DNA of 63,367 nt. It comes from Actinomycetota bacterium. Its GTDB lineage: Bacteria; Actinomycetota; UBA4738; HRBIN12. A program made the position numbers and the translations under genes. The notes below the pieces were generated by a model, which was not told the DNA's origin, ran no database searches, and saw only the letters and a list, made by a program, of their open reading frames with translations. The DNA lies in the NCBI GenBank assembly GCA_050998695.1, contig JBPCPX010000032.1:1-63367 (forward strand), written 5' to 3'. Shown here in pieces: positions 9,401 through 63,367 of the stretch (positions within the stretch are counted from its first letter, which is position 1; every line of letters starts with the position of its first letter).

Positions 9401-9449
9401 GGCTCGGATGTTAACGGGAGCGACGTGGCGACCGGGCTAGACTCCGTCG

Positions 9450-10316
9450 GTGGCCCTCGACCTCCGCGCGGCACGGCACAAGGTCACCGAGCTCCGGCGG
9501 ATCGTGAGCGGCATCCCGGACCCGGCGGTGGCGTTCTCCGGAGGCGTTGACAGCTCGCTCCTGGCGGTCGTCGCTCGGGATGTGCACGGAGACGACATGC
9601 GCGCGGTGATCGCGGACTCACCGTCCTTGCCCCGGAACGAGCTCGCGGCGGCGATCCGGTTCGCGGACGCCCACGACCTGCCCCTCCGTGTGGTCCGCAC
9701 CGCGGAGTTGGAGGACCCCCGATACCGTTCGAACGGATCCGACCGGTGCGCCTTCTGTAAGGAGGCGTTGCTGGAGGCCGTGATGACCGACCCGCTCCTC
9801 GGCAGCCGGACGATCCTGCTCGGCGTGAATCTGGATGACCTCGCGGATCATCGGCCCGGCCAGCGAGCGGCGCGGGACCGTGGTGCTCGGTTCCCGCTCG
9901 TGGAAGCCCGCTTGGGCAAGCACGAGGTCCGGGCACTCGCGCAGGATTTCCACCTCGAGACGTGGGACAAGCCGGCGGCCGCGTGTCTCGCCTCGCGATT
10001 GGCCTACGGTGTACCGGTGTCGGAGGAAGCGCTCAACAGGATCGAGCGGGCCGAGGCGTCCCTGCGCAGCCTCGGTTTCGCGGGGGACGTGCGCGTACGG
10101 GATCAGGGTTCGGGATTGGCTCGGATAGAGGTGCCACCGGAACGTTTCGAGGACCTGCTCGCTCGCCGGACGGAGGTGATCGAGGGGATGCGCGAGGCCG
10201 GATTCCGCTACGTCACCCTTGACCTGGAGGGGTTCCGCTCGGGGAGCCACAACCTAACGATCTCCACCGAAGAGCTCCGGACCCGCCTCCCTCGGAGCCC
10301 CACGGACGTGCGATGA
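9450..10316 (+). CDS. larE: LarE, ATP-dependent sulfur transferase (PP-loop ATP pyrophosphatase)
   Basis: PP-loop AFSGGVDSSLL. Cysteines in CAFC (codons 9747 and 9756) and the AACLASR cysteine (aa 179). Divergent from larB across a 49-bp spacer. Confidence 0.8.
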   Translation: MALDLRAARHKVTELRRIVSGIPDPAVAFSGGVDSSLLAVVARDVHGDDMRAVIADSPSLPRNELAAAIRFADAHDLPLRVVRTAELEDPRYRSNGSDRCAFCKEALLEAVMTDPLLGSRTILLGVNLDDLADHRPGQRAARDRGARFPLVEARLGKHEVRALAQDFHLETWDKPAAACLASRLAYGVPVSEEALNRIERAEASLRSLGFAGDVRVRDQGSGLARIEVPPERFEDLLARRTEVIEGMREAGFRYVTLDLEGFRSGSHNLTISTEELRTRLPRSPTDVR

Positions 10317-43200: not shown

Positions 43201-43586
43201 AAGCCCGGATCCTGCTCGTTCATCTCGGCCATCGCGTCGCGGATCGCGAGCGCGGCGCGAACGGCGCGCTCCGGGTCGTCCTCGTGCGCGGTCGGGGCGC
43301 CGAACACCGCCATCACCGCGTCGCCGATGAACTTCTCGACGGTCCCGCCCCGTCGTTCGAGCTCCTCGCGGAGACGGGCGAAGTACGGCGTCAACGTCGC
43401 GCGGACGTCTTCGGGATCGAGCTGTTCGCTCCTGCTCGTGAACCCGACCAGATCGGCGAATAGCACCGTGACGACCTTCCTCTCCTCACGGGCCGATCTC
43501 GCCGCATCGCCCAGAGGCGATCCGCAGTTGCCGCAGAAGCTCGCGTCTTCGGGGTTCTCTCGCCCGCAGGTGCTGCAGGTCAACAC
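40233..43586 (-). CDS. zinc-ribbon / class III adenylate-guanylate cyclase / AAA(STAND) ATPase / TPR multidomain protein
   Basis: N-terminus CSTCGRENPEDASFCGNCGSPL. Cyclase VVTVLFADLVGFTS..KFIGDAVMAVFG..VGVNTGE. Walker A GEPGIGKSRLV. Long helical repeat region. No C-terminal LuxR HTH seen. Confidence 0.85.
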   Translation of the reverse strand: MLTCSTCGRENPEDASFCGNCGSPLGDAARSAREERKVVTVLFADLVGFTSRSEQLDPEDVRATLTPYFARLREELERRGGTVEKFIGDAVMAVFGAPTAHEDDPERAVRAALAIRDAMAEMNEQDPGFDLHVRVGVNTGEALISLGVHPLQGEGMAAGDVVNTAARLQTAAPVDGILVGETTYRATERAIEYRGAEAIEAKGKSEPVTAWEVLEARSSYGVDVTRRVDTSLVGRERELALLRDALDRARHQDESQLVTLVGEPGIGKSRLVHELSAHIETMPDLIAWRQGRCLPYGDGVSYWALGEMVKAEAGILETDPDVEASAKLDRTVSELIVDTDERGWVARHLRPLVGLTQERGSGDESSDEGPAAWRRFLEALAERRPTVLIFEDLHWADDGLLDFLDYLIDWTRDIPLLVLCTARPELLARRPDWGGGKPNAATISLAPLSDEETARLLAGLLDRAVLPAELQSALLERAGGNPLYAEEFARLAANRSAAGLSTVELPGSVQGIIAARLDGLEPADKSLLHDAAVVGKTFWLGAVAAIGGRDPADLERRLHQLERGRFIRRERRSSVGGETEFAFLHLLVRDVAYGQIPRGGRAAKHRAAADWIGSLGGERLEDRAELLAHHYLSALELARAAGQDTGDLERPARLALRAAGDRALGLAAYAAAERAYAAAVDLWPDDDPERPTLLYQYGRAIWVHRDAGDEILAEAKAALLQMGDVETAALAELLIGDHIWRRGEGREAQDRFDRAASLIEGRAPSGAVAHAKAHLARYLMVTGRSADAIRVGREAIAIAGEVGRDEVRTFALNSVGTARINMGDLGGFADIEESIDVAEQAVLPWHIARNNVNLGVSLFYTGEVRRAYEVHQRNLEYARRIGMDAAIIWNLAEVAFDLSLVGRWDDSLEILDAEIARMEAGAPHYLEVQHRQTRARIRMGRGDPAGALADAERGVEVGRSAGDPQALQPSLAEKARVLFHIGRIEDAVATIEEILRSAGPEPMMDWSWWIVPATIVLTEVGRAEEILALGGEDLPSRWIQAGRLWASGDRAGAADRFEEIGSAPDEAYARVKEAERLIAAGRRAEAEPFLSRALELYRGMGATAFIQEAEQLLAPPA

Positions 43587-47002: not shown

Positions 47003-49102
47003 GTGGCGAGCGTCGCCGACGAGGTTGCTGCGCTCCGCGGCACCCGGTCGGCGACGCTCGGCGACCTGATCACGCACCCCCCGTTCGCCCGCTTGCTCGC
47101 GGCGATGTCGGTGTCCTCGCTGGGCGACTGGGTCGGATTCCTCGCGGTGACCGCACTCGTCGCGGAGCTGGCAGGCGGCACCGGCGGCGCTGCCTTCTCG
47201 GTTGCCGGGTTGATGCTCGCCCGGACCCTCCCCGCCGTCCTGTTCGGTCCGATCGCCGGTGCCCTCGTCGACCGACTGGACCGGAAGCGGATCATGGTCG
47301 CCGCCGACCTCGCCCGAGGCGCGATGTACGCAGCGATGGTGTTCATCGGCCAGTTGTGGGCGATCTACGCGCTGTCCTTCGTGATCGAGAGTTTCTCGCT
47401 CGTCTGGGGACCCGCTCGCGACGCTTCACTCCCGAACCTCGTCCCGCGCCGTCAGCTCGCCAACGCGAACTCGATCGCGCTCGCCTCCACCTACGGCACC
47501 CTTCCACTCGGCGGGATCGTGTTCACGGTGCTCGTCGGTTTGAACACGCTGCTCAGCCACGCGATCCCGATCCTCGAGGGACGTGACCAGGCGGTGCCCT
47601 TGTTCCTCGACGCCGCGACCTTCTTGTTCTCCGCCGCGATGATCAGCCGCGTACCGATCCCTCCATCCGCGAGGCTCACCGGGCGTTTGGATTTCTCGCG
47701 CATCTGGCGCGACGTCGGCGACGGGATCCGGTTCCTCCGCGAGGACTCGATGGCGTCGGCGATGACCGCCGGGATCGTCGTCGCCTTCTCGGCCGTCGGC
47801 GCCGTGCTCGCGCTGGCACCGCTGTTCGTCGTCCGGAGCCTCGGCGCCGACGACGCGGGATGGGGGTTCATGGTTACTTCCTTCGGAGTCGGTATCGGTC
47901 TCGGGATGGTAAGCGCGAACCAGGCATCGCGGTTGCTCGAACGCGTCTCGCTCTTCCCGTGGTCGATCGTCGTGTCCGCGGGCACGCTCTTCGTGCTTGC
48001 GGTGATGCCCAATCTCGCCCTCGCCGCCGTCGTGACCGTCTGGCTCGGTGCCTTCTGCGGGCTGGCCTGGGTCACGGGCTACACCCTGCTCCAGGAGAAC
48101 GTCCGGGACGAGTTCCGCGGGCGGACGTTCGCCTCGCTCACGGTCCTTTCCCGCATGGGGTTGTTCCTCTCCCTTGCCACGTTCCCTACGCTTGCAGGTG
48201 TCTATGGCACATTGGGCGCCGGCTCCGAGCTCGGGATCCGACTGGCTCTCGCGAGCGCGGGCATCGCGGTGGCCGTCGCCGGGCTCAACACGCGTCGCCT
48301 CCTCAAGCGCTACCGGCTCTCTCGTCCCCAGCCCCTTACCCTCGTGCCGAAGCTGAAGCGGCCGCCCGCGACCGGCTTCTTCATCGCCTTCGAGGGCGTC
48401 GAGGGGTCCGGGAAGGGAACCCAGGTGCGGATGGCGGAGGAGTTCATGCGTTCGGAGGGCTACGACGTGCTGGTCACCCGCGAGCCGGGGGGGACCGCGG
48501 TCGGCGAACGGGTACGAGAGCTGCTCCTCGATCCCGAGACGGGGAAGCTCGACGCGCGGACCGAGGCGCTCCTGTTCGCCGCGTCCCGCGCGCAGACGGT
48601 CCATTCGGTGATCCGGCCCGCGCTGGCGGACGGGAAGGTCGTGATCTGCGACCGGTACGTGGACTCGTCCCTCGCGTACCAGGGGTGGGGGCGAGGGTTG
48701 GGCGAACAGGACATCCTGACCTTGAACGTGTGGGGCACACAGGGCCTATTCCCTGACCTCGTGATCCTGCTGCACCTGGAACCCGAGCGAGGTCTCCTCC
48801 GCTCGACGGATCCGCCCGACCGGATGGAGCTCGAGGGCCAGGACTTCCACACCAAGGTGGCCGACGCGTACCTGAGGATCGCCGAAGAGCACCCGGAACG
48901 CTTCGTGGTCGTCGACGCGGACAAGCCCGAGGCCGAGGTCTTCGAAGCCGTGAGGGTCGCGATCGACAAGGCGCTGGGTGAGCGTGAGGACGGGGGTGGT
49001 GCCGGAGCACTGAAGTCATCGACCGGCCCCTCGGAGACCGGAGGGGGAGCGGCCGCCTCGAACGGAGACGAGACCGGATCCGATGCCTTGCCCGCCGACT
49101 GA
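47003..49102 (+). CDS. tmk: MFS-type membrane domain fused to dTMP (thymidylate) kinase
   Basis: About 450 aa of MFS-like polytopic region, then FIAFEGVEGSGKGTQ (P-loop)..TREPGGT..DRYVDSSLAYQG. GTG start 3 nt after the topA stop. Confidence 0.85.
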   Translation: MASVADEVAALRGTRSATLGDLITHPPFARLLAAMSVSSLGDWVGFLAVTALVAELAGGTGGAAFSVAGLMLARTLPAVLFGPIAGALVDRLDRKRIMVAADLARGAMYAAMVFIGQLWAIYALSFVIESFSLVWGPARDASLPNLVPRRQLANANSIALASTYGTLPLGGIVFTVLVGLNTLLSHAIPILEGRDQAVPLFLDAATFLFSAAMISRVPIPPSARLTGRLDFSRIWRDVGDGIRFLREDSMASAMTAGIVVAFSAVGAVLALAPLFVVRSLGADDAGWGFMVTSFGVGIGLGMVSANQASRLLERVSLFPWSIVVSAGTLFVLAVMPNLALAAVVTVWLGAFCGLAWVTGYTLLQENVRDEFRGRTFASLTVLSRMGLFLSLATFPTLAGVYGTLGAGSELGIRLALASAGIAVAVAGLNTRRLLKRYRLSRPQPLTLVPKLKRPPATGFFIAFEGVEGSGKGTQVRMAEEFMRSEGYDVLVTREPGGTAVGERVRELLLDPETGKLDARTEALLFAASRAQTVHSVIRPALADGKVVICDRYVDSSLAYQGWGRGLGEQDILTLNVWGTQGLFPDLVILLHLEPERGLLRSTDPPDRMELEGQDFHTKVADAYLRIAEEHPERFVVVDADKPEAEVFEAVRVAIDKALGEREDGGGAGALKSSTGPSETGGGAAASNGDETGSDALPAD

Positions 49103-50337: not shown

Positions 50338-50715
50338 ATGACCGTTCGAGTTCTCATCGTCGACGACCAGGAGCCCTTCCGCATGGCTGCCCGGATGGTG
50401 GTGGAAGCCACGGACGGGTTCGAGGTCGTGGGCGAGGCCGAGACCGGCGAGGACTCCGTCACGATGGCCTCCGACCTCGTGCCCGACCTCGTCCTGATGG
50501 ACGTGAATCTTCCCGGGATCAACGGCCTCGACGCCACACGCCAGATCCTCGCCGACAACGCGAACAGCGCCGTCGTGCTGCTCCTCTCGACGTACGAGGA
50601 GGAGGAGTACGCGCCGCGCGCCGCGGAGTGCGGCACGGCCGCCTACATCCCCAATTCGGTCTTCGGACCCGATCTTCTGGAAGAGGCGTGGGCCGCCGCG
50701 CGCGGCGCCGCCTGA
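50338..50715 (+). CDS. stand-alone receiver-domain response regulator (no output domain)
   Basis: GGAGGA RBS followed by MTVRVLIVDDQE..DLVLMDVNLPGINGLDA..VLLLST. 125 aa, ending 7 nt before the convergent kinase stop. Confidence 0.8.
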   Translation: MTVRVLIVDDQEPFRMAARMVVEATDGFEVVGEAETGEDSVTMASDLVPDLVLMDVNLPGINGLDATRQILADNANSAVVLLLSTYEEEEYAPRAAECGTAAYIPNSVFGPDLLEEAWAAARGAA

Positions 50716-50722
50716 CGTTCCC

Positions 50723-52798
50723 TCAGACCGGCACGCTCCCGTTGACTGCCGTCCCCTCGCCGACGGTGCTGACGATCTCGAACGTGCCGCCCAAGGCATC
50801 CAGCCGGTCCGCGATCCCTTGGAGCCCCGAGCCGTGTGACGCAGAGGCGGGGTCGAAGCCCACGCCGTCATCGGTGACCGCGAACGAGAGTCGACCGTCG
50901 CTCCGAGCGAGTGAGATCTTCACCTTCGAGGCCTCCGCGTACTTCGTCACGTTCTGCAACGCCTCGAGACACGAGAAGTACACCGCCGCCTCGACGTCCT
51001 GGGAGAAGCGGCCGAGATCGCCGGCGTCGACCGAGACCGGAACCCGCAGCTTCCGGGCCTGCGCCTCCAACGCGGCCGGGAGCCCCTTGTCCGCGAGCAG
51101 CGGGGGATAGATGCCCCTGGCGAGGTCGCGGAGGTCGTCGAGCGCGGCGGTCGCTTCCGCCTGGAGCTGGGTCGCGATCTCGGTCGCCTTCGCGGGATCG
51201 CGGCCGGCGATCTGTTCGAGGAGCCGGAGCTTCACGGTGAGCGCCACGAGTTGCTGCTGCGCCCCGTCGTGGATGTTGCGTTCGAGTCGGCGCCGTTCCT
51301 CGTCCTGCGCGGCGACCAGCCGCTGTCGCGAGGCCCGGAGCTCCTCGATGAGACGCACGTTCCGCAACACGAAGCCCGCCTGCGAGGCCAGGTCCCGCAC
51401 GATGCGGCGCTTGGCGGGGGTCATCGGATCGCTCGGTGACGGCTCGACGCTCAGACCGCCGAGGAGCTCGCCCTGGTGACGAACCTCGAACGCCTCTTCG
51501 CCGCGCAGCTCCGGGAGCCGGCCGGGCTCGGTCTGGAGCGACGTGGCCGTGGGCAGGTCCGGCGGCCACGTGGCGGCGGCGTGCAGCTCGCGGCCCACGC
51601 GGAGCCAGACGCGAGCAGCTCTCGCACGAGTGGCTTCGCCAACGAGCTGCGCCATCCGCGGAAGTACGTCCTCGGATGAGTAGGTGGCACCGACGCGACC
51701 GGAGAACTCGGTGAGGACCTCGTACGGCGTCGAGCGTCCGCCGAACACGAGCCGGTCGGCCAGCCACGTGGAGAACCGGTACAGGGGGAGCAACAGGAGC
51801 CCCAGGAGGACACCGGCTGCCAGCAAGAGCGCCGGCCGCTCATCCAGGGACGGCACCAGGCCGACTCCGACGAGGGTCGTCGCGACGCCACCGACCACCA
51901 TCAGGGCGACGACCAACACCGCGAACACGACCGTCCTTTTGATGACGAGTTCGAGATCGAAGAGCCCGTGCCTGATGATCGAGAGGCCGATCGCGACCGG
52001 GAACGCGACGCCGATGACCGCGATGAGCGCTAGCCAGAGGCCCTCGACGACGGGATTGAACTGGTCGCCGTCGGCGGAAACGACGCCGGACCCGATGGTC
52101 CCGACGAGCAACACGCACGCGAGGGCGGCGAGGTAGGCGAGCCATCTGATCTGCTGCCGCTCGTCCCCACTCGCGCGCCGGTACCGCAGGAACAGGGCGA
52201 CGACCGACGCGACCGACGCGAGGAAGAGCCCGGTCGTGGTGGCGAACAACACGGGCCCCAACACCGGCCGAAGTGCCTCCACACCGGTCGGGTTCGGGAC
52301 CTTGACGACGTCGTTGTCGACGGCTCCCGGGCTCAACATGACTGCCACCGCCGAGACCACGGCGACGGTGACCACCGCCGCCGGAACCCAGCGCCATCGG
52401 GGGGAATGCACGCGCCCCGTCGGGAAGAGCAACAGGATCAACGGGATCGGCATGAACACGACGAAGAAGACCCAGTTACTGAGCCACACCGCGAGATCGA
52501 GGAAGGGGACCGACGCCGACGGCTCGGTGACGTAGCCGTACGTGACGAGCTCGGAGGTGAGGCCCACGAGCGCGAATCCCAGCCCGATCGTCAGCATCAG
52601 CCAGCCGAGGGGATTGCCGGGGATGCGAGATGCCACGACGGCTCCGACGGTGCCGTACCCGAGCATCATGAGGATCGCGATCGCGACGAACGCCTCGAAC
52701 GAGTCGTTCCAGGCCGTGACTGTCGCCGTGATCGCCAGGAGTACGAGCATCAGGCCGTAGATGGCCCACGGCAGGCGTCGTCGAAGGGTGCTCGTCAC
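50723..52798 (-). CDS. polytopic GAF-like/HisKA_3 sensor histidine kinase, array member 5 of 5 (HK1 in my numbering)
   Basis: 691 aa. GDERQQIRWL, TPYEVLTEF, ERNIHDGAQQQLVAL (His codon 51269-51271), AVYFSCLEALQNVTKYA, DDGVGFD, GSGLQGIADRL. Confidence 0.88.
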   Translation of the reverse strand: MTSTLRRRLPWAIYGLMLVLLAITATVTAWNDSFEAFVAIAILMMLGYGTVGAVVASRIPGNPLGWLMLTIGLGFALVGLTSELVTYGYVTEPSASVPFLDLAVWLSNWVFFVVFMPIPLILLLFPTGRVHSPRWRWVPAAVVTVAVVSAVAVMLSPGAVDNDVVKVPNPTGVEALRPVLGPVLFATTTGLFLASVASVVALFLRYRRASGDERQQIRWLAYLAALACVLLVGTIGSGVVSADGDQFNPVVEGLWLALIAVIGVAFPVAIGLSIIRHGLFDLELVIKRTVVFAVLVVALMVVGGVATTLVGVGLVPSLDERPALLLAAGVLLGLLLLPLYRFSTWLADRLVFGGRSTPYEVLTEFSGRVGATYSSEDVLPRMAQLVGEATRARAARVWLRVGRELHAAATWPPDLPTATSLQTEPGRLPELRGEEAFEVRHQGELLGGLSVEPSPSDPMTPAKRRIVRDLASQAGFVLRNVRLIEELRASRQRLVAAQDEERRRLERNIHDGAQQQLVALTVKLRLLEQIAGRDPAKATEIATQLQAEATAALDDLRDLARGIYPPLLADKGLPAALEAQARKLRVPVSVDAGDLGRFSQDVEAAVYFSCLEALQNVTKYAEASKVKISLARSDGRLSFAVTDDGVGFDPASASHGSGLQGIADRLDALGGTFEIVSTVGEGTAVNGSVPV

Positions 52799-55023
52799 CG
52801 GTCCCGCCCCATCTCGGTCGGCACCACGCCGGAGATCGTCGTCCCGGCGTCGGGCGCGGTGCGGACCTCGAGCGTTCCCCCGATCGCGTCCAGGCGGTCG
52901 GCCATCCCCTGGAGCCCGGTGCCGCCGCCCTTGGCGGCCGCGTCGAACCCACGACCGTCGTCTACGATCTCGAACCGGAGCTCCTCCTCATCCTGTCGAA
53001 TGCGGATCTCGACGGTCGACGCCTCCGCGTACTTCGCGACGTTGTTCAGCGCCTCGAGGCAGCAGAAGTACACGGCCGACTCCACATCCGGACCGTAGCG
53101 GCCGACACCGTCGGGTTGCACGGAGACGGGAACCGGTGACTTCCGAGCTTGCGCCTCGAGTGCGGCTGGCAGACCTTTGTCGGCGAGCAGTGGCGGATAG
53201 ATCCCTCGGGCGAGATCCCGGACATCCTCGAGTGTCTCGACCGTGCGCGCCTGGAGATCCGCGAGCACGGCTCGAGCCTTCGCCGGATCGCGGTCGACCA
53301 TGCTCTCGGCGAGGCGCAGCTGCACCGAGAGCGCCACAAGTTGTTGCTGCGCGCCGTCGTGGATGTTCCGCTCGAGGGCGCGAGCCCGTTCGTCCTGAGC
53401 GCTCACGATCCGCCTGCGTGACTCACGGAGGTCTTCGATCAATCGCACGTTGCGCAGCACCAGGCCCGCCTGCGCAGCCATGTCTCGGATCAGCTTCTCT
53501 TTCGTGGGGTTCATGGGATCGTCCGCCGCCGCGATGATGGTGAGCGCACCCAGGAGCTCGCCCTGGTGTTTCACCTCGAACGCCTCTTCCGCCCCGAAGT
53601 CCGGAAGCTCGTCCTCCCGAACGGCCACGCCCGAAGGGATCGCACTTCCCGGGGGCCAGGAGGCCTCAACCCGCATCTCGTCGCCGATGCGCAGCCAGGC
53701 CCGCGCGGTCCGTGCGCCGCTTGCTTCACCGAGGAGTTGCACCATCCGCGGGAGCACGTCCTCGGTCGAGTACGTCTCGCCGACACGCTCCCCGAACTCG
53801 GAGAGCACCTCGTACGGCGTGGCGCGCTTCCCGTACACGACCCGGTTCGCCCACCGGCGAGCGCGGGTCCGGATCAGCATGAATCCGACCGCCAGGATCG
53901 CCCCGATCGCGACCGGCACGGGATCGGTCACGCCCCCTCCGACGCCCAAGACGGCCGTTGGGATCGCGACGAGCACGAGTCCGAGGACGGCCGTGAACCC
54001 TGCCGCGAGCACTCCGTATTGCAAGGTCTTCTTGACGACGACGTCGAGATCCCAGAGGCCGTGACGGAAGATCGCGACGAGGTACGCGGCGGGGACGCCC
54101 AGCACGATCGTGAACGCGGTGAGCGCGAAGAACGCTTCGAAGACGGGGGCGTCCTCATTCCGGAAGAAGAGCTCGGCTCCCAGGCCGACCACCCACTGCA
54201 TCACGAAGAAGAAGCCGGCGAGCGAGGCCACGTAGGCCAACCACCGCATCTGCTGGCGTTCCTCTCCGACCGCGCGCTTGAACCGCTGTCGCACGGCGAC
54301 GACGGTGGAGGCGGCGGAGAGCAGGGCGATCACGGTGCCCACCTGGATCACCTTCGGCGCGAAGGTCGCCAAGCTGTCGATCCCGAACGGGTTCTCATAG
54401 AGGATCCCGTCCCCGATCCAGTTGTTGTAGGGGCCGGGGCGGACGGAGAAGCCGACGATCGCGAGGGCAGTGCCCCCGACGAGACCGGCGACGGCCCATC
54501 GCCATCGACGGCTGGGCGCATGACCGTCCGGGTACAGGAGGAACAGGAGCGGGAGCAGCGCGATCGGATACAGGGCGTACTCGCCGAGGGTGGCCCAGAG
54601 CCCGACCAGTGGGACGGAACCCGGCTCGGCCTTCAGTCCGTGGATCACGAGTGCCTGGCCGAGCGTGAGCAACGGGAACGGGGCGCCGGTGATCAGGAAG
54701 ATCCATCCGGCCCAGTTCCGCGGTTGTCGCCATACGATCAGGAAGCCGACGCCGAGCCACACGAGCAAGAGCACGACGAGGACGGCGAAGCCTGGGTTGT
54801 ACCCGCCGGTGCTGGCCTCGAGCGCGTCCCCGCGCGCACGCTCCCTCTGGAGCTCCCTCAACAACACTTGCATCCGGGGCGTGCTCAGGTCCCCCACCAC
54901 GACGATCTCTCCCGGCCCGACCCGCTGACGGGCGGCCAGCCCGACCGGGATGGAGGCGACGACCGCGACGAAGCTGAGTCCGACGATGACTCCCGCGATC
55001 ATCCGTGCGGTCTTCGGGCTCAT
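52795..55023 (-). CDS. polytopic GAF-like/HisKA_3 sensor histidine kinase (HK2)
   Basis: 742 aa. GEERQQMRWL, ATPYEVLSEF, ERNIHDGAQQQLVAL (His codon 53359-53361), AVYFCCLEALNNVAKYA, DDGRGFD, GTGLQGMADRL. 4-nt overlaps at both ends. Confidence 0.88.
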   Translation of the reverse strand: MSPKTARMIAGVIVGLSFVAVVASIPVGLAARQRVGPGEIVVVGDLSTPRMQVLLRELQRERARGDALEASTGGYNPGFAVLVVLLLVWLGVGFLIVWRQPRNWAGWIFLITGAPFPLLTLGQALVIHGLKAEPGSVPLVGLWATLGEYALYPIALLPLLFLLYPDGHAPSRRWRWAVAGLVGGTALAIVGFSVRPGPYNNWIGDGILYENPFGIDSLATFAPKVIQVGTVIALLSAASTVVAVRQRFKRAVGEERQQMRWLAYVASLAGFFFVMQWVVGLGAELFFRNEDAPVFEAFFALTAFTIVLGVPAAYLVAIFRHGLWDLDVVVKKTLQYGVLAAGFTAVLGLVLVAIPTAVLGVGGGVTDPVPVAIGAILAVGFMLIRTRARRWANRVVYGKRATPYEVLSEFGERVGETYSTEDVLPRMVQLLGEASGARTARAWLRIGDEMRVEASWPPGSAIPSGVAVREDELPDFGAEEAFEVKHQGELLGALTIIAAADDPMNPTKEKLIRDMAAQAGLVLRNVRLIEDLRESRRRIVSAQDERARALERNIHDGAQQQLVALSVQLRLAESMVDRDPAKARAVLADLQARTVETLEDVRDLARGIYPPLLADKGLPAALEAQARKSPVPVSVQPDGVGRYGPDVESAVYFCCLEALNNVAKYAEASTVEIRIRQDEEELRFEIVDDGRGFDAAAKGGGTGLQGMADRLDAIGGTLEVRTAPDAGTTISGVVPTEMGRDR

Positions 55024-57134
55024 CCCACCACCTCGGATATACGGGCCGGTACGGTTCCGGTGACCGTCGTCCCCTCTCCAGGCACGCTCTCGATCGTGAG
55101 GGTGCCCCCGAACGCGGCCATCCGGTCGCGCATGATCTGGAACCCTTCGCCCTCGGTCGCCCGTTCGACGGTGAAGCCGGCCCCGTGGTCGTGAACGGTG
55201 AACGAGAGCCTCTCGCCGGCCTGGTCGATCGAGATCTCGATCGGAGATCCCGGGGCATGGCGCACCGCGTTCTGAACCGCCTGCACGCAGCAGAAGTACA
55301 CGGCGGCCTCGATGGCGTAGTCGTAGCGGGTCCCGGGTTCGCCCGTCTCGATCGAGAATCGTGACTCCGACCCGGCACGTCGGGCCATCGCCGAGAGGGC
55401 CGCAGCAAGTCCTTGATCGACGAGGAGCGGAGGGAAGATCCCGCGCGCGACTTCCCGAAGGTCGTCCAGCGCGGCGTTCGTCCGTTCGCTCAGATGGTCG
55501 AGCGAGGCTCGCACAGGATCGGGGTGTGCCGCCACACGCTCCGCATCGAAGCCGATCTGGTCACGGATCCGGGCGATCTCCGCTCCCACGCCGTCCCTGA
55601 GCTCTTGCTCCAACCTCCGTCGCTGGGCGTCGCGTACGGTCACCAACCGTTCACGAGACAGCCGGAGCTCCTCGTTCTGCGATGCGAGGTCTTCCGCCCG
55701 CGCTTCGAGGTCGAGCGTCAGCCGTGCGTTCTGGAGAGCGATCCCCGCGTGCCCGGCGAGGTCCTCCAGAAGTGATCGCTCGGCTGAACGGAGGGGCTCG
55801 CTCGCCTGCTTCACGATCGCGAGATCGCCGATCGGCTTGCCCGCGTGGTCGATGCCGAGGACCAGCGTGGGCTCGGCGATGTCGGTGTCCGGCGGCCACG
55901 TGGCCGCCAGCGTCCGGCCCTCCTCCATGAAGAGCTGTACGCGGGCGGCTCGCGCGCCTACCCCCCGACCCGCCGCCTCGGCCATGTCGGAAAGCACGTG
56001 ATCCGCCGAGGGTACTCCCGCCACCCGATGGCCGAATTCCGCCATGACCTCGTACGGAGTGGCGCGGCGCCCATACACGATCCGATTCGCCACCTGCTGG
56101 AGCAACGACCACGCTGGTTGCACGCCGACCGCGACGAGGGCGGTCGCAGCGATCCTGAGGGCCTGGCTGCGCGTATCGCCGATCAACTCGCCGATCCCCA
56201 CGACGAGCCCGACGTAGACGGCAGCGATGCCGAGGGCTAACGCGACGTATGCGATGGTCTTGGAGACGACGACGTCGACGTCATAGAGGCGGTATCGGAA
56301 GATCGCGAGCGCGGTGGCCGACGGGATCCCCAGCACCAGCACCACGGCAAGCGAGATCCAGAGGACATCGGACTCAGGCCCCGAGATCAGGAATCCTTGT
56401 ACGAGCATCGCGACCAGGATGGCGGCGGCCGCGAGTGCCACCAGCATCAGCCACTTGATCTGCTGTCGTTCGTCCCCTCGAGCTCGACGGAAGCGAACGA
56501 TGAGCGAGACGATCGCCGCCGCCGAGGCTGCAAGGACGATCGCAACCCCGGCGTCGAAGAGCGGTCCCCACGGACGGAGGAACTCGAGCCCGAGCGGGTT
56601 CCGGATCCGGAAGCGGTTCGGCTCGGCGTAGATGACGCCAGGGCGGAACAGGAGCCAGACCAAGCAGAGCAGACTCCCGACCAGCCAGGCACGGCTCACC
56701 CATCGCCATCGAGGGGTAGGCGGTGCCCCCGTCGGGAACAAGAGGAAGAGCATCGGGATCGCGAGCGCCATCACGGGGGGGAACAGGCTCGCCGTCACCC
56801 CTGCGATCCCCGTGCCGGGGAGGCTCGGGACGTATGGCTCCCGGAACGCGACGACGACGTACCCTTCGCCGGGCAAGCCGAGAGCCAGCGCGCCGCCCAT
56901 CACGAGGAACACCCAGCCCAGGACATTGCCGGCACGGGTCACGATGAGCCGACCGAGCGTGGAGAACCCGCTCACGAGCACGATGACGAGAACCACGAAG
57001 AGCAGATCGCCCCCACCCTCCCCGGTAAGAGCCCCGCCGATCACCGCGAGGATGACCAGCGCGAGGATGGCGAGCGAGGCGACGTGGACGATCCTGGCAC
57101 ACCGCGACGAGCGCGTCGCCGTTCGTTCGCTCAC
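55020..57134 (-). CDS. polytopic GAF-like/HisKA_3-type kinase paralogue lacking the phospho-acceptor His (HK3, predicted pseudokinase)
   Basis: 704 aa. GDERQQIKWL, ATPYEVMAEF. The H-box position reads RRRLEQELRDGVGAEI (Arg codon AGG at 55596-55598). The N-box AVYFCCVQAVQNAVRHA is retained. G-boxes DHGAGFT and GEGFQIMRDRM. Confidence 0.8.
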   Translation of the reverse strand: MSERTATRSSRCARIVHVASLAILALVILAVIGGALTGEGGGDLLFVVLVIVLVSGFSTLGRLIVTRAGNVLGWVFLVMGGALALGLPGEGYVVVAFREPYVPSLPGTGIAGVTASLFPPVMALAIPMLFLLFPTGAPPTPRWRWVSRAWLVGSLLCLVWLLFRPGVIYAEPNRFRIRNPLGLEFLRPWGPLFDAGVAIVLAASAAAIVSLIVRFRRARGDERQQIKWLMLVALAAAAILVAMLVQGFLISGPESDVLWISLAVVLVLGIPSATALAIFRYRLYDVDVVVSKTIAYVALALGIAAVYVGLVVGIGELIGDTRSQALRIAATALVAVGVQPAWSLLQQVANRIVYGRRATPYEVMAEFGHRVAGVPSADHVLSDMAEAAGRGVGARAARVQLFMEEGRTLAATWPPDTDIAEPTLVLGIDHAGKPIGDLAIVKQASEPLRSAERSLLEDLAGHAGIALQNARLTLDLEARAEDLASQNEELRLSRERLVTVRDAQRRRLEQELRDGVGAEIARIRDQIGFDAERVAAHPDPVRASLDHLSERTNAALDDLREVARGIFPPLLVDQGLAAALSAMARRAGSESRFSIETGEPGTRYDYAIEAAVYFCCVQAVQNAVRHAPGSPIEISIDQAGERLSFTVHDHGAGFTVERATEGEGFQIMRDRMAAFGGTLTIESVPGEGTTVTGTVPARISEVVG

Positions 57135-59203
57135 GACGACCGCACCCTTGCCGGCACTCGCAGCCGCCCCGAGACCGTCGTTCCCGAGCCCTGCGTCGAG
57201 GTGATCGTGACGTCGCCTCCGAATGCGGCCAAGCGATCACGCATGTTCTGCAGGCCGGTGCCGCGCGGCGCCACCGCCGAGTCGAAGCCGACCCCGTCGT
57301 CTTCCACCCAGAAGGAAAGGCCGTCATCGTCGCGAGCGAGGCGAACGCGAACCTCGGTCCCCCGCGCGTACTTGGCGGCGTTCTGCATCGCCTCGAGGCA
57401 CACGAAATACACGGCGGCCTCGATCTCGATCGGAAGTCGGTCGACCCCGTCGCTGTCGACCGAGACGGGGACGCCGGCCGCTCCACCTTGCGCGGCCAAG
57501 GCGGTGCCGACCCCTTGTTCTTCCAGCACCGAGGGATAGATTCCGCTGGCCAGGTCGAGCAGTGTCGTGAGCGCGAGATCCGTCTGATCCCTGAGGTCCG
57601 TGAGCTGGTCCGCCGCCCGCCGCGGGTCCTTCGCCGCCGTGGTACCCACGAGACGAAGCTTCACTGCGAGCGCCACCAGATGTTGCTGTGCGCCATCGTG
57701 GATGTTGCGCTCCAGTCGGCGGCGTTCGGCGTCATGGGCCTGCACGATCCGCATCCGCGATCCCTGGAGCTCACGAGCCCGAACGGAGAGCTCGTCGACC
57801 CGCGCCTGCAACTCGCCGGTGAGCGACAGGTTCCGGATGACCAGCCCCGTCTGGGAAGCCAGGTCGGCGAGGAGCTTCTCCTCGGTGGGGCGAAGTGGCT
57901 GGCCCGGCGCCGTCCAGACGCGGATCTCCCCGAGCACCTGGTCCTGATGCCTGATCTCCTGGATCAGCGGATCTGAGGCACCCGGCGTGCTGTCCGATGG
58001 CCAGACCGCGGAGGGATGAAGCATCCCGTCGGCGCGGAGCCAGATCTCGACGTGGCTCGCGCCGGTTCCCTCGGCGATCACTCGAGCGGTGCGAGGAACC
58101 ACGTCCTCGGCGGCGAACGTCGCGCCGACGCGGTCGCTGAAGCGGGCCAGCACCTCGTAGGGCTCCGCGCGCCTGCCGAACACGAGCCGGTTGGCGAGTC
58201 TCGTGACTCGGCGCCGGATCGGCTGGAAGAGCGCCGCGACGAGAGCGGTGGCCACGAGCGAGGGGACGAGCGAGTCGGTCGCGAGTGTGCTGATCACGAC
58301 AACGACGGCAACGTAGACGCCGGTGATGAAAACGGCGAGCGCGCCGAACACGAGGGTCCGCCGGATGACGACGTCGATCTCGTAGAGGCCGTATTTCAGG
58401 ATCGCCAAGCCGATGGCGGTAGGGACGCCGATCGCGAGCACGATGAAGAAGAGGAAGAAGAACGCGTTGTTCACGGCGACGTTGCTCTCGGTGGCGAAGG
58501 TGCCGACCATCAGCACGAGCGCTGCGATGCCGACATACGCCAGCCACCTGATCTGCTGGCGCTCGTCTCCGGACGACCTCCTGAACCTGAGCACCAAGGC
58601 CGTCAGTGCCGCGAGCGCGGCCACGAGCGAGCCGATGCCCCCGACCGTCAGGAAGACGTCTGCCACTGGCTCGAGCGACTCGATCGCGGTCGGATTCTCC
58701 AGATGGAAGCGGTCCGGCGTCTCGAGCCCGTTCGGCGAAAGAACGAACCCGAGGACGGCGAGGAGCGTCAGGCCCGCGATCGCCCAGACGAGGAGCCGCC
58801 ATCTGCGCGAAGGCGGCCGGCCATCCGGGAACAGCACCAGGACGAGCGGGATCGATTCCAGCGCCAAGACGAAGAGCCAGCTCTGCAACCAGGCGAGCGG
58901 GATGACGAACGCCATCGAACCGGTGACGAGTCCGCGGGTCACGAACTCATCTGCGAACGCCGACAGAGCGAAGACCGTCGCGGTCGCGCAGAAGAGCCAT
59001 CCGATCGCATTGCCGGGCCGCCGTGAGGCCATCAGCGCGCCGACACCACCGTAGCCGAGGACCAGACCGATCCCTCCGTAGATGACGACGAAGTCCTTCT
59101 CTCCGGACGCCGCGCCCGTCGCGAGGACGAAACTCCAGACCAGGAGGGCGATATCGATGACGAACGAGCCCCACGCGAGCCGGAAGGGAGTGCTTCTCTT
59201 CAC
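57131..59203 (-). CDS. polytopic GAF-like/HisKA_3 sensor histidine kinase (HK4)
   Basis: The GTG start at 59203 (VKRSTPFRLAWGSF..) overlaps the upstream stop (GTGA). GDERQQIRWL, AEPYEVLARF, ERNIHDGAQQHLVAL (His codon 57698-57700), AVYFVCLEAMQNAAKYA, DDGVGFD. Confidence 0.85.
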   Translation of the reverse strand: MKRSTPFRLAWGSFVIDIALLVWSFVLATGAASGEKDFVVIYGGIGLVLGYGGVGALMASRRPGNAIGWLFCATATVFALSAFADEFVTRGLVTGSMAFVIPLAWLQSWLFVLALESIPLVLVLFPDGRPPSRRWRLLVWAIAGLTLLAVLGFVLSPNGLETPDRFHLENPTAIESLEPVADVFLTVGGIGSLVAALAALTALVLRFRRSSGDERQQIRWLAYVGIAALVLMVGTFATESNVAVNNAFFFLFFIVLAIGVPTAIGLAILKYGLYEIDVVIRRTLVFGALAVFITGVYVAVVVVISTLATDSLVPSLVATALVAALFQPIRRRVTRLANRLVFGRRAEPYEVLARFSDRVGATFAAEDVVPRTARVIAEGTGASHVEIWLRADGMLHPSAVWPSDSTPGASDPLIQEIRHQDQVLGEIRVWTAPGQPLRPTEEKLLADLASQTGLVIRNLSLTGELQARVDELSVRARELQGSRMRIVQAHDAERRRLERNIHDGAQQHLVALAVKLRLVGTTAAKDPRRAADQLTDLRDQTDLALTTLLDLASGIYPSVLEEQGVGTALAAQGGAAGVPVSVDSDGVDRLPIEIEAAVYFVCLEAMQNAAKYARGTEVRVRLARDDDGLSFWVEDDGVGFDSAVAPRGTGLQNMRDRLAAFGGDVTITSTQGSGTTVSGRLRVPARVRSS

Positions 59204-61257
59204 GGCTCCACCCCCACGGGGACGGCGCCCCGGATCGTCGTGCCCAGGCCGGGCGCGGTGCGAAGGACGAACTCGCCGCCGAGCGCGGCAAGGCGGTCGG
59301 CGATCCCCTGCAGTCCCGTGCCGCGCTCGGCGGTGTGGGCGTCGAAGCCGAGGCCGTCGTCGGTGACCTCGAAGCTGAGGGTGCCGTTCGCCTGTGAGAG
59401 CCGGATCGTGACGGCCGTCGCCTCCGCGTATTTGGCGATGTTCTGCAGGGCCTCGAGGCATGAGAAGTACACGGCAGCCTCCGCCTCCTGCGGGTAGCGG
59501 CCGATCCCGTCGACCTCGACATCGACCGGCATGTGCGACTTCCGCGCCTGACTCTCGAGCGCGGCACCGAGCCCCTTGTCCGCGAGCAGCGGCGGATAGA
59601 TCCCGCGCGCGAGGTCCCGCAGGTCCTCCAGCGCCTGGCTCGTGTCGGTCTGAAGGTCGGCGAGCATCTCGTGCGCGCGCGCCTCGTTCTTGCCGAGGAG
59701 TGAGTCCGCGAGCTTCAGCTTCACGGCGAGCGCGACCAGCTGCTGCTGCGCTCCGTCGTGGATGTTCCGTTCGATCCTTCGTCGCTCCTCGTTCTGCGCG
59801 GCCACGAGCCGCTGACGCGAGGCCTTGAGGTCCTCGATCAGGGTCGCGTTCCGGAGCACGAGCCCCGCCTGCCCTGCGAGGTCCCGGATCAGCTGCTCTT
59901 TGGACGGGGTGATCGGATCGCTCGCCGGCATCTGCACCGAGAGGGCACCGAGCACCTCACCTTGATGGGCAACCTCGATCGCGGATGTCGGGATCGATCG
60001 GGCGGCAGGCTGGTGAGCGGGCCAGGTCGCTCCGGGTTGGAACCGATCGCCCACGCGGAGCCACACCGTCGCGGCATCGGCGCCGACCGCTTCGCCGAGG
60101 ACTTGCGCCATCCGTTCCAGGACGTCGTCGGCGGCGTAGGTCTCGGCCACCCGGCCGGAGAACTCGCTCAAGACCTGATAGGGGGTGGCCCGGCGCCCGA
60201 ACACGAGCCGGTCCGCGATGCGAGTGGCGACCCGGCGGAGCGGCCATACCGCCAGGCCGACCACGATCCCGGCCAGCATCCACGCGTATTCGCCCTCCCC
60301 GGCCCCCCGCAGCACGAGCCCGGCGGCCGCCCACGCGACGACGGCTCCGAGGCCGAAGAGCAGGATCGCGAGGACCGCGTAGACGACCGTCTTCTTGATC
60401 ACGAGGTCGATCGTGTACAGCCGGTACTTGAGGATCGCGACCCCGATCGCGACCGGGATCGACACGAGCGCGACAACGAGCAGGTACTCGACCACATCCA
60501 GCGACGTTGTTCCGTTCCCACCGAGGGTCCAGTAGGGGACGCCGACGATGAACGTCGAACCCAGTAGCGACAGCGCGAGCAGGAGCCACTTCAGCTGCTG
60601 CCGCTCCTCCCCCCGCGATCGGCGGTACCGGATCGCCATGGACGCGATGGCGCCGAGGAGGGCGGACGCGAACACGAGCATGACTATGTCGCCGACCGGC
60701 CGGATCCAGTCCGCGCCGTCGATCCCGAAGGGGTTGGGCACGCCGGGGAAGCTCTCGAGCTCGCCGGGTGCCAAGCCGAAGCAGAGGGCGCCGGCCGTGG
60801 CGCCGATCAGGCCGAGCACGAGGATGTATCCCCAACGGCGGGATAGGAGTTGCCCGGTGGGATAGAGCATCGGGATCACCAACGCCACCGCGGCCATGTA
60901 TGGGATCCAGACCCATTCGGTGAACCAGGCGGCGACGTCGGCGCCGGGGACTTCTCCGGGCGCGTGATAGAGGCCGTACTGCGAGTAATGCTGGGCGAAC
61001 TCCTGCACCGCCGTCCCCACTCCCGCCGCAAGGAGAACCCATCCGATCGGGTTGGAGGGGACGCGCGAAGCGATCAGGACGCCGGCGACCGCGAACGCAG
61101 ACGCGAGGATCAATCCCCACCCCTTGAACCCGAACGCCGACTCCGGGAAGGGTGTGCCGAGACCGAGGATCAGGAACACGAGGGCCGCGAGCAGGATCAC
61201 CACCGTCAGCCCCACCAGGGACCAGGCGAAGCGCGACGAGGTTCTGGATCCCGGCAT
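59200..61257 (-). CDS. polytopic GAF-like/HisKA_3 sensor histidine kinase, first gene of the array (HK5)
   Basis: ATG at 61257 (MPGSRTSSRFAWSLVGLTVV..). GEERQQLKWL, ATPYQVLSEF, ERNIHDGAQQQLVAL (His codon 59758-59760), AVYFSCLEALQNIAKYA, DDGLGFD. Confidence 0.85.
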   Translation of the reverse strand: MPGSRTSSRFAWSLVGLTVVILLAALVFLILGLGTPFPESAFGFKGWGLILASAFAVAGVLIASRVPSNPIGWVLLAAGVGTAVQEFAQHYSQYGLYHAPGEVPGADVAAWFTEWVWIPYMAAVALVIPMLYPTGQLLSRRWGYILVLGLIGATAGALCFGLAPGELESFPGVPNPFGIDGADWIRPVGDIVMLVFASALLGAIASMAIRYRRSRGEERQQLKWLLLALSLLGSTFIVGVPYWTLGGNGTTSLDVVEYLLVVALVSIPVAIGVAILKYRLYTIDLVIKKTVVYAVLAILLFGLGAVVAWAAAGLVLRGAGEGEYAWMLAGIVVGLAVWPLRRVATRIADRLVFGRRATPYQVLSEFSGRVAETYAADDVLERMAQVLGEAVGADAATVWLRVGDRFQPGATWPAHQPAARSIPTSAIEVAHQGEVLGALSVQMPASDPITPSKEQLIRDLAGQAGLVLRNATLIEDLKASRQRLVAAQNEERRRIERNIHDGAQQQLVALAVKLKLADSLLGKNEARAHEMLADLQTDTSQALEDLRDLARGIYPPLLADKGLGAALESQARKSHMPVDVEVDGIGRYPQEAEAAVYFSCLEALQNIAKYAEATAVTIRLSQANGTLSFEVTDDGLGFDAHTAERGTGLQGIADRLAALGGEFVLRTAPGLGTTIRGAVPVGVEP

Positions 61258-61437
61258 GACCAGCGCATCGTCCCATCGGTGTAGGGGTCCCTCCAAGGGC
61301 GTCGACCTGCGGTTCCCGGTGCGAGAACACCCGGGGCAAGGGAGTGCTGGCACCCCGGCGAAGTCTGCATGCACGCGCCGTCGTCGTGGCCCGGTGGGCG
61401 GCGTAGCGTCGCCATGACGAACGAAGGAGGACCTCAG

Positions 61438-61845
61438 ATGACGACGATCCTGGTGGGAACGGACACCTCGGCGGCCGCGGATCTCGCGGTGGAGGACGCG
61501 GCGCGACTCGCTCGTGACCGCGGTGCCGAGCTCTTGGTCCTGTACGTGAAGTCCGAAGGTGACGTTCGGGCGGTCGTCGACCCGGACCGGGCCGCCGACC
61601 CCCAGACGCACCTGCGTCGTCTCGCCGCGAGGTTCCCGGGTCTGTCGATCACGACCCGGATCGAGGACGGCGACGCCGCATCTCGGATCGTGGACGTGGC
61701 TGAGGAGATCCGAGCGGACACCATCGTGCTCGGGAACCGCGGCACCCACGGGTCACGATGGCGTGTTCGCGAGACGGTTCCGAACCTCGTGCTCCGGCAC
61801 GCGCCGTGCAGCGTCTACATCGTCGACACGCGGCGGGCCCAGTAG
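61438..61845 (+). CDS. universal stress protein (UspA family)
   Basis: GGAGGA RBS. MTTILVGTDTSAAADLAVEDAARLA..ADTIVLGNRGTHG..VPNLVLRHAPCSVYIV. Confidence 0.85.
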   Translation: MTTILVGTDTSAAADLAVEDAARLARDRGAELLVLYVKSEGDVRAVVDPDRAADPQTHLRRLAARFPGLSITTRIEDGDAASRIVDVAEEIRADTIVLGNRGTHGSRWRVRETVPNLVLRHAPCSVYIVDTRRAQ

Positions 61846-62537: not shown

Positions 62538-62587
62538 GCGCGGATGGTACACGCGAGGAACTTGCACAGATCTCAGGGGGCGGTTGC

Positions 62588-63279
62588 GTGACGATCCGGG
62601 TGGTGCTCGGCGAGGACAACGTCCTGGTGCGCGAGGGCGTTCGAGCGCTGTTGAACTCTTACGAGGACATCGAGGTCGTCGGGGTCGCCGAGGACGCGCC
62701 CACGCTGCTCGCCACGGCGGCGGAGCACAGCCCCGACGTCGTCGTGACCGACATCAAGATGCCGCCGTCCTTCCAGCTCGAAGGGATCGACTGCGCGCAC
62801 GCGATCCGCGAGCGCCATCCGGCCACGGGTGTCGTGGTCCTGTCCGCGCACGACGACGAGGAGTACGCGATCGCGCTGCTCGGTAAGGGTCACAGCGGGC
62901 TCGCGTACCTCTTGAAGGATCGGATCGCGCAGGGCGACGAGCTCGCCCGCGCGATCCGCGAGGTGCAGAGTGGCGGGAGCGTCGTGGACCCCGCGATCGC
63001 CGAGCGTCTCTCCGGGCGGGCCGAGTCCCAGGAGGAGGACCGGATCGTCCTCGACATGATGGCTCAGGGTCTCGGCTACGAGGCGATGGCGGCGGCGCTC
63101 GGCACGACCCAGGAGGCCGTGGACGGGCGCGTGACGATGTTGTTCCGGCGGATGGCCGGTGACGGCGGAGCCGGCACCGGCCTCCTGGGAGAGTTCAAGA
63201 AGCTGCATGCGGCCGTCGTCGAGCAGTCGGCGACGGCGACCTCCCTCAAGTCCTATGTTCCGTCCCAGTTCGTGGACGC
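62588..63279 (+). CDS. NarL-type response regulator paralogue with divergent GerE-like HTH and a further C-terminal extension, 3'-truncated by the contig end
   Basis: Own translation from GTG 62588: VTIRVVLGEDNVLVREG..DVVVTDIKMPP..AYLLKDR..DRIVLDMMAQGLGYEAMAAALGTTQEAVDGRVTMLFRRM..LGEFKKLHAAVVEQSATATSLKSYVPSQFVDA. It then runs into poly-G. It is not in the ORF track because there is no in-window stop. Confidence 0.7.
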
Positions 63280-63367
63280 GGGGGGGGGGGGGGGGGGGGG
63301 GAGGGGGGGGGAAGGGGGAGAGGGGGGGGGGCTGTGTTGGCTCAAGTGGTGGAGGGGTGCAACTAGT
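63280..63367. other. terminal poly-G low-complexity tract plus unrelated tail (sequencing/assembly artefact)
   Basis: The run from 63280 to about 63331 is almost pure G, interrupted by single A residues, followed by ctgtgttggctcaagtggtggaggggtgcaactagt. It lies at the extreme contig end. Confidence 0.8.

Follow-up and report, generated by a model that had tools for sequence, protein, structure and literature searches.

A conserved head-to-tail array of histidine-kinase paralogues with a His-less member, beside two paralogous receivers in uncultured Actinomycetota

In textbook two-component signalling each kinase has one regulator as its partner, and paralogous kinases are insulated from one another by divergence of the surface of their dimerisation and histidine phosphotransfer (DHp) domain. 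How, then, should one read a locus in which five membrane histidine kinases of common descent follow each other head to tail, overlap at every junction, and include a member that has lost the phospho-acceptor histidine? Such an array lies at positions 50,723 to 61,257 of a 63,367-nt stretch of DNA from an Actinomycetota bacterium (contig JBPCPX010000032.1 of assembly GCA_050998695.1), the whole of which we call the window, and it was first pointed out in an initial annotation made from the letters of the DNA alone. We consider it probable, while leaving real room for other readings, that this is a multikinase two-component locus which runs many inputs into few outputs and includes a conserved pseudokinase modulator, and that it belongs to a widespread, uncultured soil Actinomycetota lineage; as a type it is a variant of something known, multikinase or branched two-component signalling, and no new category. 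The kinases of the window are labelled K1 to K5 in coding order, and K6 denotes a sixth paralogue beyond the window end.

61257-59200, minus strand: K1, kinase at the head of the array, 685 aa, H-box His500 (Pfam and motif check; the orthologue in the related locus L009 is 77% identical)
59203-57131, minus strand: K2, 690 aa, same architecture as K1, His502 (Pfam and motif check)
57134-55020, minus strand: K3, 704 aa, pseudo-transmitter with Arg513 at the phospho-acceptor position (Pfam, motifs and comparison of orthologues)
55023-52795, minus strand: K4, 742 aa, same architecture as K1, His555, with an extra loop of ~40 aa after the first transmembrane helix (TM1)
52798-50723, minus strand: K5, last kinase of the array, 691 aa, His510 (100% identical to a public protein from a metagenome-assembled genome, MAG)

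The five open reading frames (ORFs) were found where the initial annotation had placed them; they are intact and have a high GC content at third codon positions (GC3), and a gene caller run independently on a 99.99%-identical contig returned the same five lengths. The four stop/start overlaps of 4 nt (GTGA, GTGA, ATGA and GTGA) were recovered at all junctions, each preceded by a purine-rich Shine-Dalgarno-like stretch, as were the H-box codons at 51269, 53359, 55596, 57698 and 59758. All-vs-all comparison gives 36–49% identity between the proteins, K3 being the most divergent, and ~72–74% between the alignable parts of the genes, which bears out the view of an old array rather than a recent repeat: K1–K5 are an ancient paralogue array. 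A look-up of the flanking NarL-type regulator retrieved an identical regulator protein on five independent assemblies (ENA, Logan and NCBI), which match the window at 99.6–100% identity and again yield gene calls of 685, 690, 704, 742 and 691 aa. The check for assembly duplication that the initial annotation had proposed thus found copies that are not near-identical and an array that five independent assemblies reproduce, and both an assembly duplication and a recent repeat are ruled out by these two results.

Nor is the layout peculiar to one genome, as it might have seemed from the window. A gene-neighbourhood scan, using one genome per species, identified at least 79 related loci, all from MAGs; most of these are labelled Actinomycetota or Actinomycetes, and Dormibacteria, Chloroflexota and Solirubrobacterales account for a few bins. 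Dozens of uncultured Actinomycetota species carry the layout. When the ORFs of these loci were searched with a family profile, the array arm was found to hold from 1 to at least 6 kinases. At least ten loci have four or more tandem copies, with at least six in L001 (which is cut at both ends), five each in L018 and L050, five to six in L016, and four each in L009, L011, L013, L019 and L075; L037 has 3 + 3 kinases on divergent arms, many loci are of the 2 + 2 type, many have a single copy, and L014, L024 and L068 are minimal versions with one kinase. Gene order is conserved as well. According to a nearest-neighbour analysis, L009 consists of positional orthologues of K1-K2-K4-K5 (77, 68, 74 and 66% identity), L001 reads K1-X-K2-K3-K4-K5, and the order K2-K3-K4 is kept in L026, L018 and L052 at 50–69% identity; K4 orthologues in L007, L009, L011 and L001 are 66–76% identical to that of the window.

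The transmitter of K1–K5 is an ordinary HisKA_3 kinase core. HisKA_3 (PF07730) scores 50.9, 43.3, 28.6, 43.2 and 51.0 bits in K1 to K5 against a Pfam cut-off of 24 bits, HATPase_c (PF02518) exceeds its cut-off of 26.4 bits in all five, and the motifs of the N, G1 and G2 boxes (AVYF.C..A..N, D.G.GF and G.G[LF]Q) are found throughout, K3 included. By sequence and by fold the transmitter is nearest to DesK, VraS and DevS/DosT, and the catalytic and ATP-binding (CA) domain matches DevS/DosT at 1e-9. The AlphaFold model of K5 (66 homologues, mean pLDDT 84.5) has ten TM helices within residues 3–351, a small alpha/beta GAF-like module at 375–452 that is below full GAF size, a long signalling helix with the DHp at 461–560, and the ATP-binding domain at 588–690. 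Of the architecture initially proposed, the polytopic N terminus, HisKA_3 and HATPase_c hold for all five proteins (with the H-box His lost in K3), whereas the GAF part is detected weakly by Pfam: K1 reaches 24.2 bits with no single stretch passing. Relatives do pass the GAF model, and the end of the region gives a weak match (1.3e-3) to the GAF domain of DosT (2vzw). Similarly, seven of the eight sequence motifs said to be shared occur in all five proteins, but R-x-[PA]-x-N-x-x-G-W, in its strict form, is absent from K3.

The array had been predicted to contain a pseudokinase, and this is K3. In the alignment it carries LEQELRDGVGAEI at the place where the other copies have LERNIHDGAQQQL, its H-box reading LEQELRDG as opposed to LERNIHDG, with Arg513 in the position of the His. 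The string H-D-G-A-Q-Q, present in K1, K2, K4, K5 and K6, comprises the phospho-acceptor His and DxxxQ, the phosphatase motif of HisKA_3 proteins (PMC3510030). In K3 it is replaced by R-D-G-V-G-A, which makes K3 a pseudo-member as far as the H-box is concerned, and since the Gln of DxxxQ is missing, K3 cannot act as a canonical phosphatase (PMC3510030); the N, G1 and G2 boxes that bind ATP are kept. A His-to-Arg exchange occurs in 7 of the 167 full-length family members, four of which are K3 orthologues (in L001, L026, L018 and L052). These four retain both ELRDG and the N, G1 and G2 boxes, and in 4/4 related loci having a K3 orthologue, a K2 orthologue stands directly upstream of it. Judged by these residues, K3 is predicted to be unable to accept phosphate or to signal by itself, and would most likely modulate a neighbour, either by heterodimerising with it or by supplying or withholding a catalytic domain.

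The two halves of the proteins differ markedly in how they diverge. Between paralogues, identity amounts to 27–40% in the membrane region, 35–61% in the GAF region, 31–71% in the DHp and 41–60% in the CA domain. When the 160 His-bearing members from all loci are considered, most positions of the H-box with alpha1 (RNIHDGAQQQLVAL.VKL) and most positions of alpha2 (LRDLARGIYPPLLADKGL) are ~90% conserved or more. K5 and its orthologues share 94% identity in the DHp, with 36–53% in the membrane region (36% against L026; the comparison covers L009 7788-10754 and L026 7761-10352), and one gene of L009 has a membrane half that is K2-like (87%) joined to a transmitter half that is only ~50% like K2. 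Since DHp and membrane identities part company in these cases, sensor and transmitter halves evolve separately. They probably recombine separately too, and the pattern suggests recombination or rapid diversification of sensor halves within arrays.

As the initial annotation had noted, there is no response regulator within the array; three genes with a receiver domain (REC) flank it, along with a gene for a universal stress protein (Usp).

50338-50715, plus strand: single-domain receiver (REC-only), convergent with K5 (Pfam Response_reg 4.4e-20); the ORF opens at 50245, the likely start being the Met at 50338
61438-61845, plus strand: Usp, 135 aa, divergent from K1 (Pfam Usp 2.7e-25; same gene call on the 99.99%-identical contig L080)
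61872-62537, minus strand: NarL/LuxR-type regulator, REC + GerE, 221 aa (Pfam REC 3.9e-15, GerE 4.5e-14)
62588-63280, plus strand: gene encoding REC + degenerate LuxR-type helix-turn-helix (HTH) + class III cyclase, of which the window end leaves the 5' part (Pfam REC 6e-18)

The regulators are thus confined to the flanks, but this does not make the kinases orphans: their conserved locus also encodes a NarL-type regulator, a REC-HTH-cyclase and a REC-only protein. Its recurrent synteny is REC-cyclase (with kinases), NarL regulator, Usp, array, REC-only, and holB-tmk-topA. The NarL regulator, in which the receiver Asp, Ser and Lys are present, lies 0.6 kb upstream of the array, outside the kinase operon, and is syntenic in most related loci, and the REC-only gene adjoins the array end in related loci even where holB is 3 kb away. 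The count of five kinases, correct for the window, falls short of the full locus, which the window cuts just before K6. On L080 the complete REC-HTH-cyclase (8664-9950, minus strand, 428 aa; Pfam REC and Guanylate_cyc) can be read, and the start of K6 overlaps its stop by GTGA; K6, of 689 aa and with the H-box unchanged, is 36–49% identical to K1–K5. Over 198 aa, receiver alpha1 (EDNxLVREGxxALL) and the HTH remnant included, the REC-cyclase shares 47% identity with the NarL regulator next to it, of which it appears to be a duplicate. The idea of multi-input signalling, which was put forward for the window alone, gains comparative support: sensor halves differ, the DHp is near-invariant, two of the flanking receivers are closely related to each other, and one of these two, the REC-cyclase, is translationally coupled to K6.

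Translational coupling of the array is supported by the overlaps themselves, which occur at 4/4 junctions in the window and, as RTGA overlaps of 4 nt, at 73 of the 84 kinase-kinase junctions (87%) across related loci; among the other close same-strand gene pairs of the window, ~2 of 12 overlap by 4 nt (hand count). A Usp homologue (E <= 1e-30) that is divergent from a family kinase and less than 500 nt from its aligned start was found in 30 sequences, that is, in 29 related loci and the window. Aligning the intergenic regions between Usp and the first kinase in related loci brought out a promoter block, and comparison of these regions also delimits an inverted repeat upstream of it.

61267-61296, minus strand: predicted sigma-70-type promoter of the array, with -35 TTGGAG (61296-61291), an 18-nt spacer and -10 GACGAT (61272-61267)
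61312-61328, no strand assigned: inverted repeat GTTCTCGCACCGGGAAC, GTTCYCGC..GGGAAC, a candidate operator upstream of the -35 (comparison with related intergenic regions)

The predicted -10 is separated by 9 nt from the ATG of K1 at 61257. A pattern of TT[GC][GC]NN, 16–19 nt, NANNNT, 5–9 nt and ATG/GTG is found at the start of the first kinase in 23 of 30 loci, compared with 0.6 +/- 0.7 in shuffled sequences. Such a position implies that the array mRNA would be leaderless or near-leaderless if made from the predicted promoter, which would explain that no ribosome-binding site precedes K1. Scanning the array for E. coli-type promoters and terminators did not yield hits beyond chance, a consensus of this type being uninformative for such an organism, and Rfam gave no RNA-element match in the whole window. 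As for the candidate operator, an exact GTTC-N7-11-GAAC stands at the equivalent position in 7 of the 30 related intergenic regions, with degenerate copies in others; the 10 exact sites in the 30 regions correspond to a density of ~1.1 per kb, where all loci together give 0.16 per kb, an enrichment of about sevenfold. A conserved box, GGGGTGCCAGCAC, is located at 61340-61355, ~20 nt upstream of the inverted repeat, and both recur at fixed positions in related loci.

The reading that we favour can be laid out as a sequence of steps. Tandem duplication of one membrane sensor kinase (10 TM helices, GAF-like module, HisKA_3 DHp and HATPase_c) would have given rise to the array, one promoter at the first start codon would transcribe it, and the RTGA stop/start overlaps would couple its translation. 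Each copy would contribute a different membrane/GAF sensor half, and each His-bearing copy an almost invariant DHp surface; because the sensor halves differ while the DHp surface is shared, different inputs are predicted to run into the same flanking receivers. These receivers would be the NarL-type transcription factor and a paralogue of it (47% identical) that carries a nucleotide cyclase, with the REC-only protein as a possible sink or connector and K3 as a putative modulator of the neighbouring kinase. The combination is unusual in that five or six tandem coupled paralogues with near-invariant DHp, diverged sensors, a conserved His-less member and an unnamed 10-TM sensor stand beside two paralogous receivers with different outputs, one of them the REC-HTH-cyclase twin of the regulator. 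If the wiring is as proposed, the locus would be a compact natural model for signal integration and for pseudokinase action in histidine-kinase networks, and a source of modular sensor and transmitter parts.

Several points weigh against this reading. Everything functional in it, namely the single transcript, the phosphotransfer partners, their convergence and the role of K3, is what we infer from sequence, starting from the observed anatomy, conservation, coupling geometry, promoter-like element and receiver paralogy. The NarL regulator is outside the kinase operon, with the opposite-strand Usp gene in between, and internal promoters may exist within the 10.5-kb array. The near-invariance of the DHp could be a family trait and no sign of convergence at this locus, since many members of the family elsewhere are orphans, having no regulator within 10 kb. 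Finally, the alpha1 of the REC-only protein is unlike that of the two NarL-type receivers, and the protein seems to have Asn in place of the conserved receiver Lys (...AAYIPNS...), so that it may not be a standard phospho-acceptor partner.

Of the alternative wirings, the one that survives best, although we regard it as unlikely, is an obligate hetero-oligomer, in which the kinases would form mixed dimers or higher arrays and K3 would donate its catalytic domain to the His of a partner or block that partner. Judging from the sequences, hetero-oligomer formation by the coupled paralogues is plausible: 4-nt coupling at 87% of the junctions would help to make the proteins in equal amounts and at one place, between paralogues the DHp helices are unusually alike, whereas insulated paralogues normally diverge there, and the member that has neither His nor phosphatase motif but keeps its ATP boxes always adjoins K2 and K4 orthologues. 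Against this, overlaps of 4 nt are common in ordinary high-GC operons too, and the number of kinases per array ranges from 1 to at least 6, with K3 missing from close relatives such as L009 (K1-K2-K4-K5), so no fixed stoichiometric complex is conserved; the single-kinase loci L014, L024 and L068, moreover, mean that homodimers must be functional. Precedents are available in FasB/FasC of Streptococcus pyogenes, for which a heterodimer has been proposed with one partner as a proposed pseudokinase (PMC12675982), and in RetS/GacS, for which mixed kinase dimers have likewise been proposed (PMC8498467). One can also conceive of mixed membrane complexes that would place diversified or swapped sensors on a constant transmitter, with an ATP-binding K3 trans-phosphorylating or gating its neighbours and the output split between the NarL regulator and the REC-cyclase. 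We hold this scheme to be doubtful; were it true, bacteria would here use obligate histidine-kinase heteromers as the basis of a sensory system.

Still harder to maintain, and in our view improbable, is that the kinases are independent and insulated, the array being the footprint of tandem duplication, each copy having its own, possibly distal, partner, and co-transcription being non-integrative. It is true that lineage-specific kinase expansions often give orphans with separate partners (PMC1630713), that the family has many dispersed orphan members and that the sensor halves are clearly different. But alpha1 and alpha2 of the DHp, including the partner-recognition surface, are mostly ~90% or more conserved family-wide, which is contrary to insulation, and the order of the genes, their coupling and the presence of three flanking receivers persist between species at 50–77% identity. 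In addition, duplicated kinases are usually scattered in the genome and not clustered, so that their retention in tandem needs an explanation (PMC1630713).

That the array is an assembly duplication, or a set of redundant copies decaying to pseudogenes with K3 the first to fall, we regard as highly improbable, for although K3 lacks the catalytic His and some related loci (L011, L026, L016 and L051) have frameshifted or split copies, the paralogues are only 36–49% identical, the five independent assemblies agree (the artefact part being already refuted), the five ORFs are intact with high GC3, each kinase has orthologues at 50–77% identity, and in four other species the K3 type has retained the Arg, the ATP-binding boxes and the full length.

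How does the favoured many-input, few-output reading compare with known systems? A literature search on tandem, adjacent or consecutive histidine kinases, multikinase networks and HisKA_3 paralogues returned comparators and no description of such a locus, in agreement with the initial annotation, which had known of no described system with this layout. The locus is like GacS/RetS/LadS of Pseudomonas, NarX/NarQ with NarL/NarP, and DosS/DosT with DosR in having several kinases of different input and a shared NarL-family receiver (predicted here); K3 resembles RetS as a non-signalling modulator, and K1–K5 have a HisKA_3-class transmitter in common with NarX/NarQ, DosS/DosT and DesK. In the known multikinase networks, however, the kinase genes are scattered and of differing architectures, whereas here a single architecture is present in five to six coupled copies head to tail, and the uncharacterised 10-TM sensor and the REC-cyclase fusion as an output are further differences. 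The DosS/DosT-DosR system of Mycobacterium tuberculosis also combines GAF + HisKA_3 + HATPase_c kinases with a NarL-family regulator and nearby Usp genes, but its kinases DosS and DosT are soluble, haem-containing proteins with a pair of GAF domains, unlike K1–K5, which are polytopic membrane proteins with one GAF-like module.

FasBCA shares with the locus adjacent, co-transcribed kinase paralogues, a division of labour, and a proposed pseudokinase and heterodimer (PMC12675982). FasBC is a pair, however, with the regulator in the same operon, compared with five plus one kinases and regulators outside the main array here, and the Fas defect concerns a dispensable kinase domain, whereas that of K3 concerns the acceptor His and the phosphatase motif, with an ATP-binding domain that looks intact. 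AbrC1/AbrC2/AbrC3 of Streptomyces coelicolor, described as an atypical two-component system of two histidine kinases and one regulator, provides an actinobacterial case of more than one kinase per regulator (PMC4428217). Its title and abstract mention none of the features that mark the present locus, namely arrays of up to six kinases, conserved 4-nt coupling, a conserved His-less member and a cyclase output.

The proposal that the N-terminal membrane module might match a named sensor domain came to nothing, either in Pfam or in a Foldseek search of the Protein Data Bank (PDB). In a hydropathy scan ~10 segments appear, with loops rich in Arg and Lys. A basic stretch at the N terminus and the cytoplasmic domains at the C terminus imply an N-in, C-in topology, which would place the motifs RxPxNxxGW, FPTG..PRW, GDERQQIRWL and R[HY]GL[FY] on the cytoplasmic side. 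Pfam found nothing consistent in 16 membrane-only segments: HisKA_7TM (PF16927) is matched by 1 of the 16, and among K1–K5 by K3 only, at 23.9 bits against a gathering threshold of 28.6 bits. A model of the TM part alone (pLDDT 84.7, pTM 0.77) had no significant Foldseek match in the PDB, the best hits being generic GPCR-like bundles (E 0.013, TM-score ~0.4). The named NCBIfam kinase families (MctS, UhpB, LiaS, NarX/NarQ, MadS and MacS) were rejected, with scores far under the equivalog cut-offs (at the top MctS, 93–114 bits against 700) and all matches confined to the C-terminal transmitter.

A profile search with the membrane module retrieved 27,854 cluster representatives (clustered at 50% identity) at E <= 1e-3 and 5,545 at E <= 1e-30, which makes it a very large membrane sensor module, of about 28,000 clusters, for which there is neither a Pfam model nor a solved relative. 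Among the representatives listed, ~700 aa is the usual size, and four of 824–1,080 aa that were scanned with Pfam all have HisKA_3 and HATPase_c, three of them also GAF. The 10-TM module is doubled in kinases of ~1070 aa (P0121 and P0150), and it stands alone, without any Pfam domain, in proteins of ~400 aa (P0206, P0216 and P0230), some of which may be gene fragments.

The end of the window calls for a comment. Its final 87 nt (63281-63367) do not align with the otherwise 99.99%-identical L080, from which the window diverges at 63280, and they translate to a Gly-rich stretch instead of the cyclase domain; this end is probably a contig-end assembly artefact. A seemingly conserved ORF of 211 aa at 62573-63208 on the minus strand, without a Pfam match, is no gene and was discarded, being a shadow ORF antisense to the receiver-coding part of the REC-cyclase gene.

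On the other side, past the REC-only gene, come holB, a fusion gene and topA.

47003-49102, plus strand: thymidylate kinase fused to an MFS transporter-like membrane domain, flanked by topA and holB, conserved in related loci

Farther along the window, at 40233-43586 on the minus strand, a protein of 1117 aa is encoded that combines a zinc ribbon with an adenylate cyclase domain, AAA_16 and TPR. In several unrelated loci (L028, L031, L042, L054, L070 and L071) homologues are found at most 10 kb from single or paired family kinases, a proximity that may be a coincidence within a large paralogue family. Beyond K6, L080 continues with membrane and cupredoxin proteins, a Usp-Rieske-flavoprotein fusion, a cyclic-nucleotide (cNMP)-binding protein and a Usp-UbiB protein; the small cNMP-binding protein (L080 2010-2435) is encoded at a distance of 4 kb.

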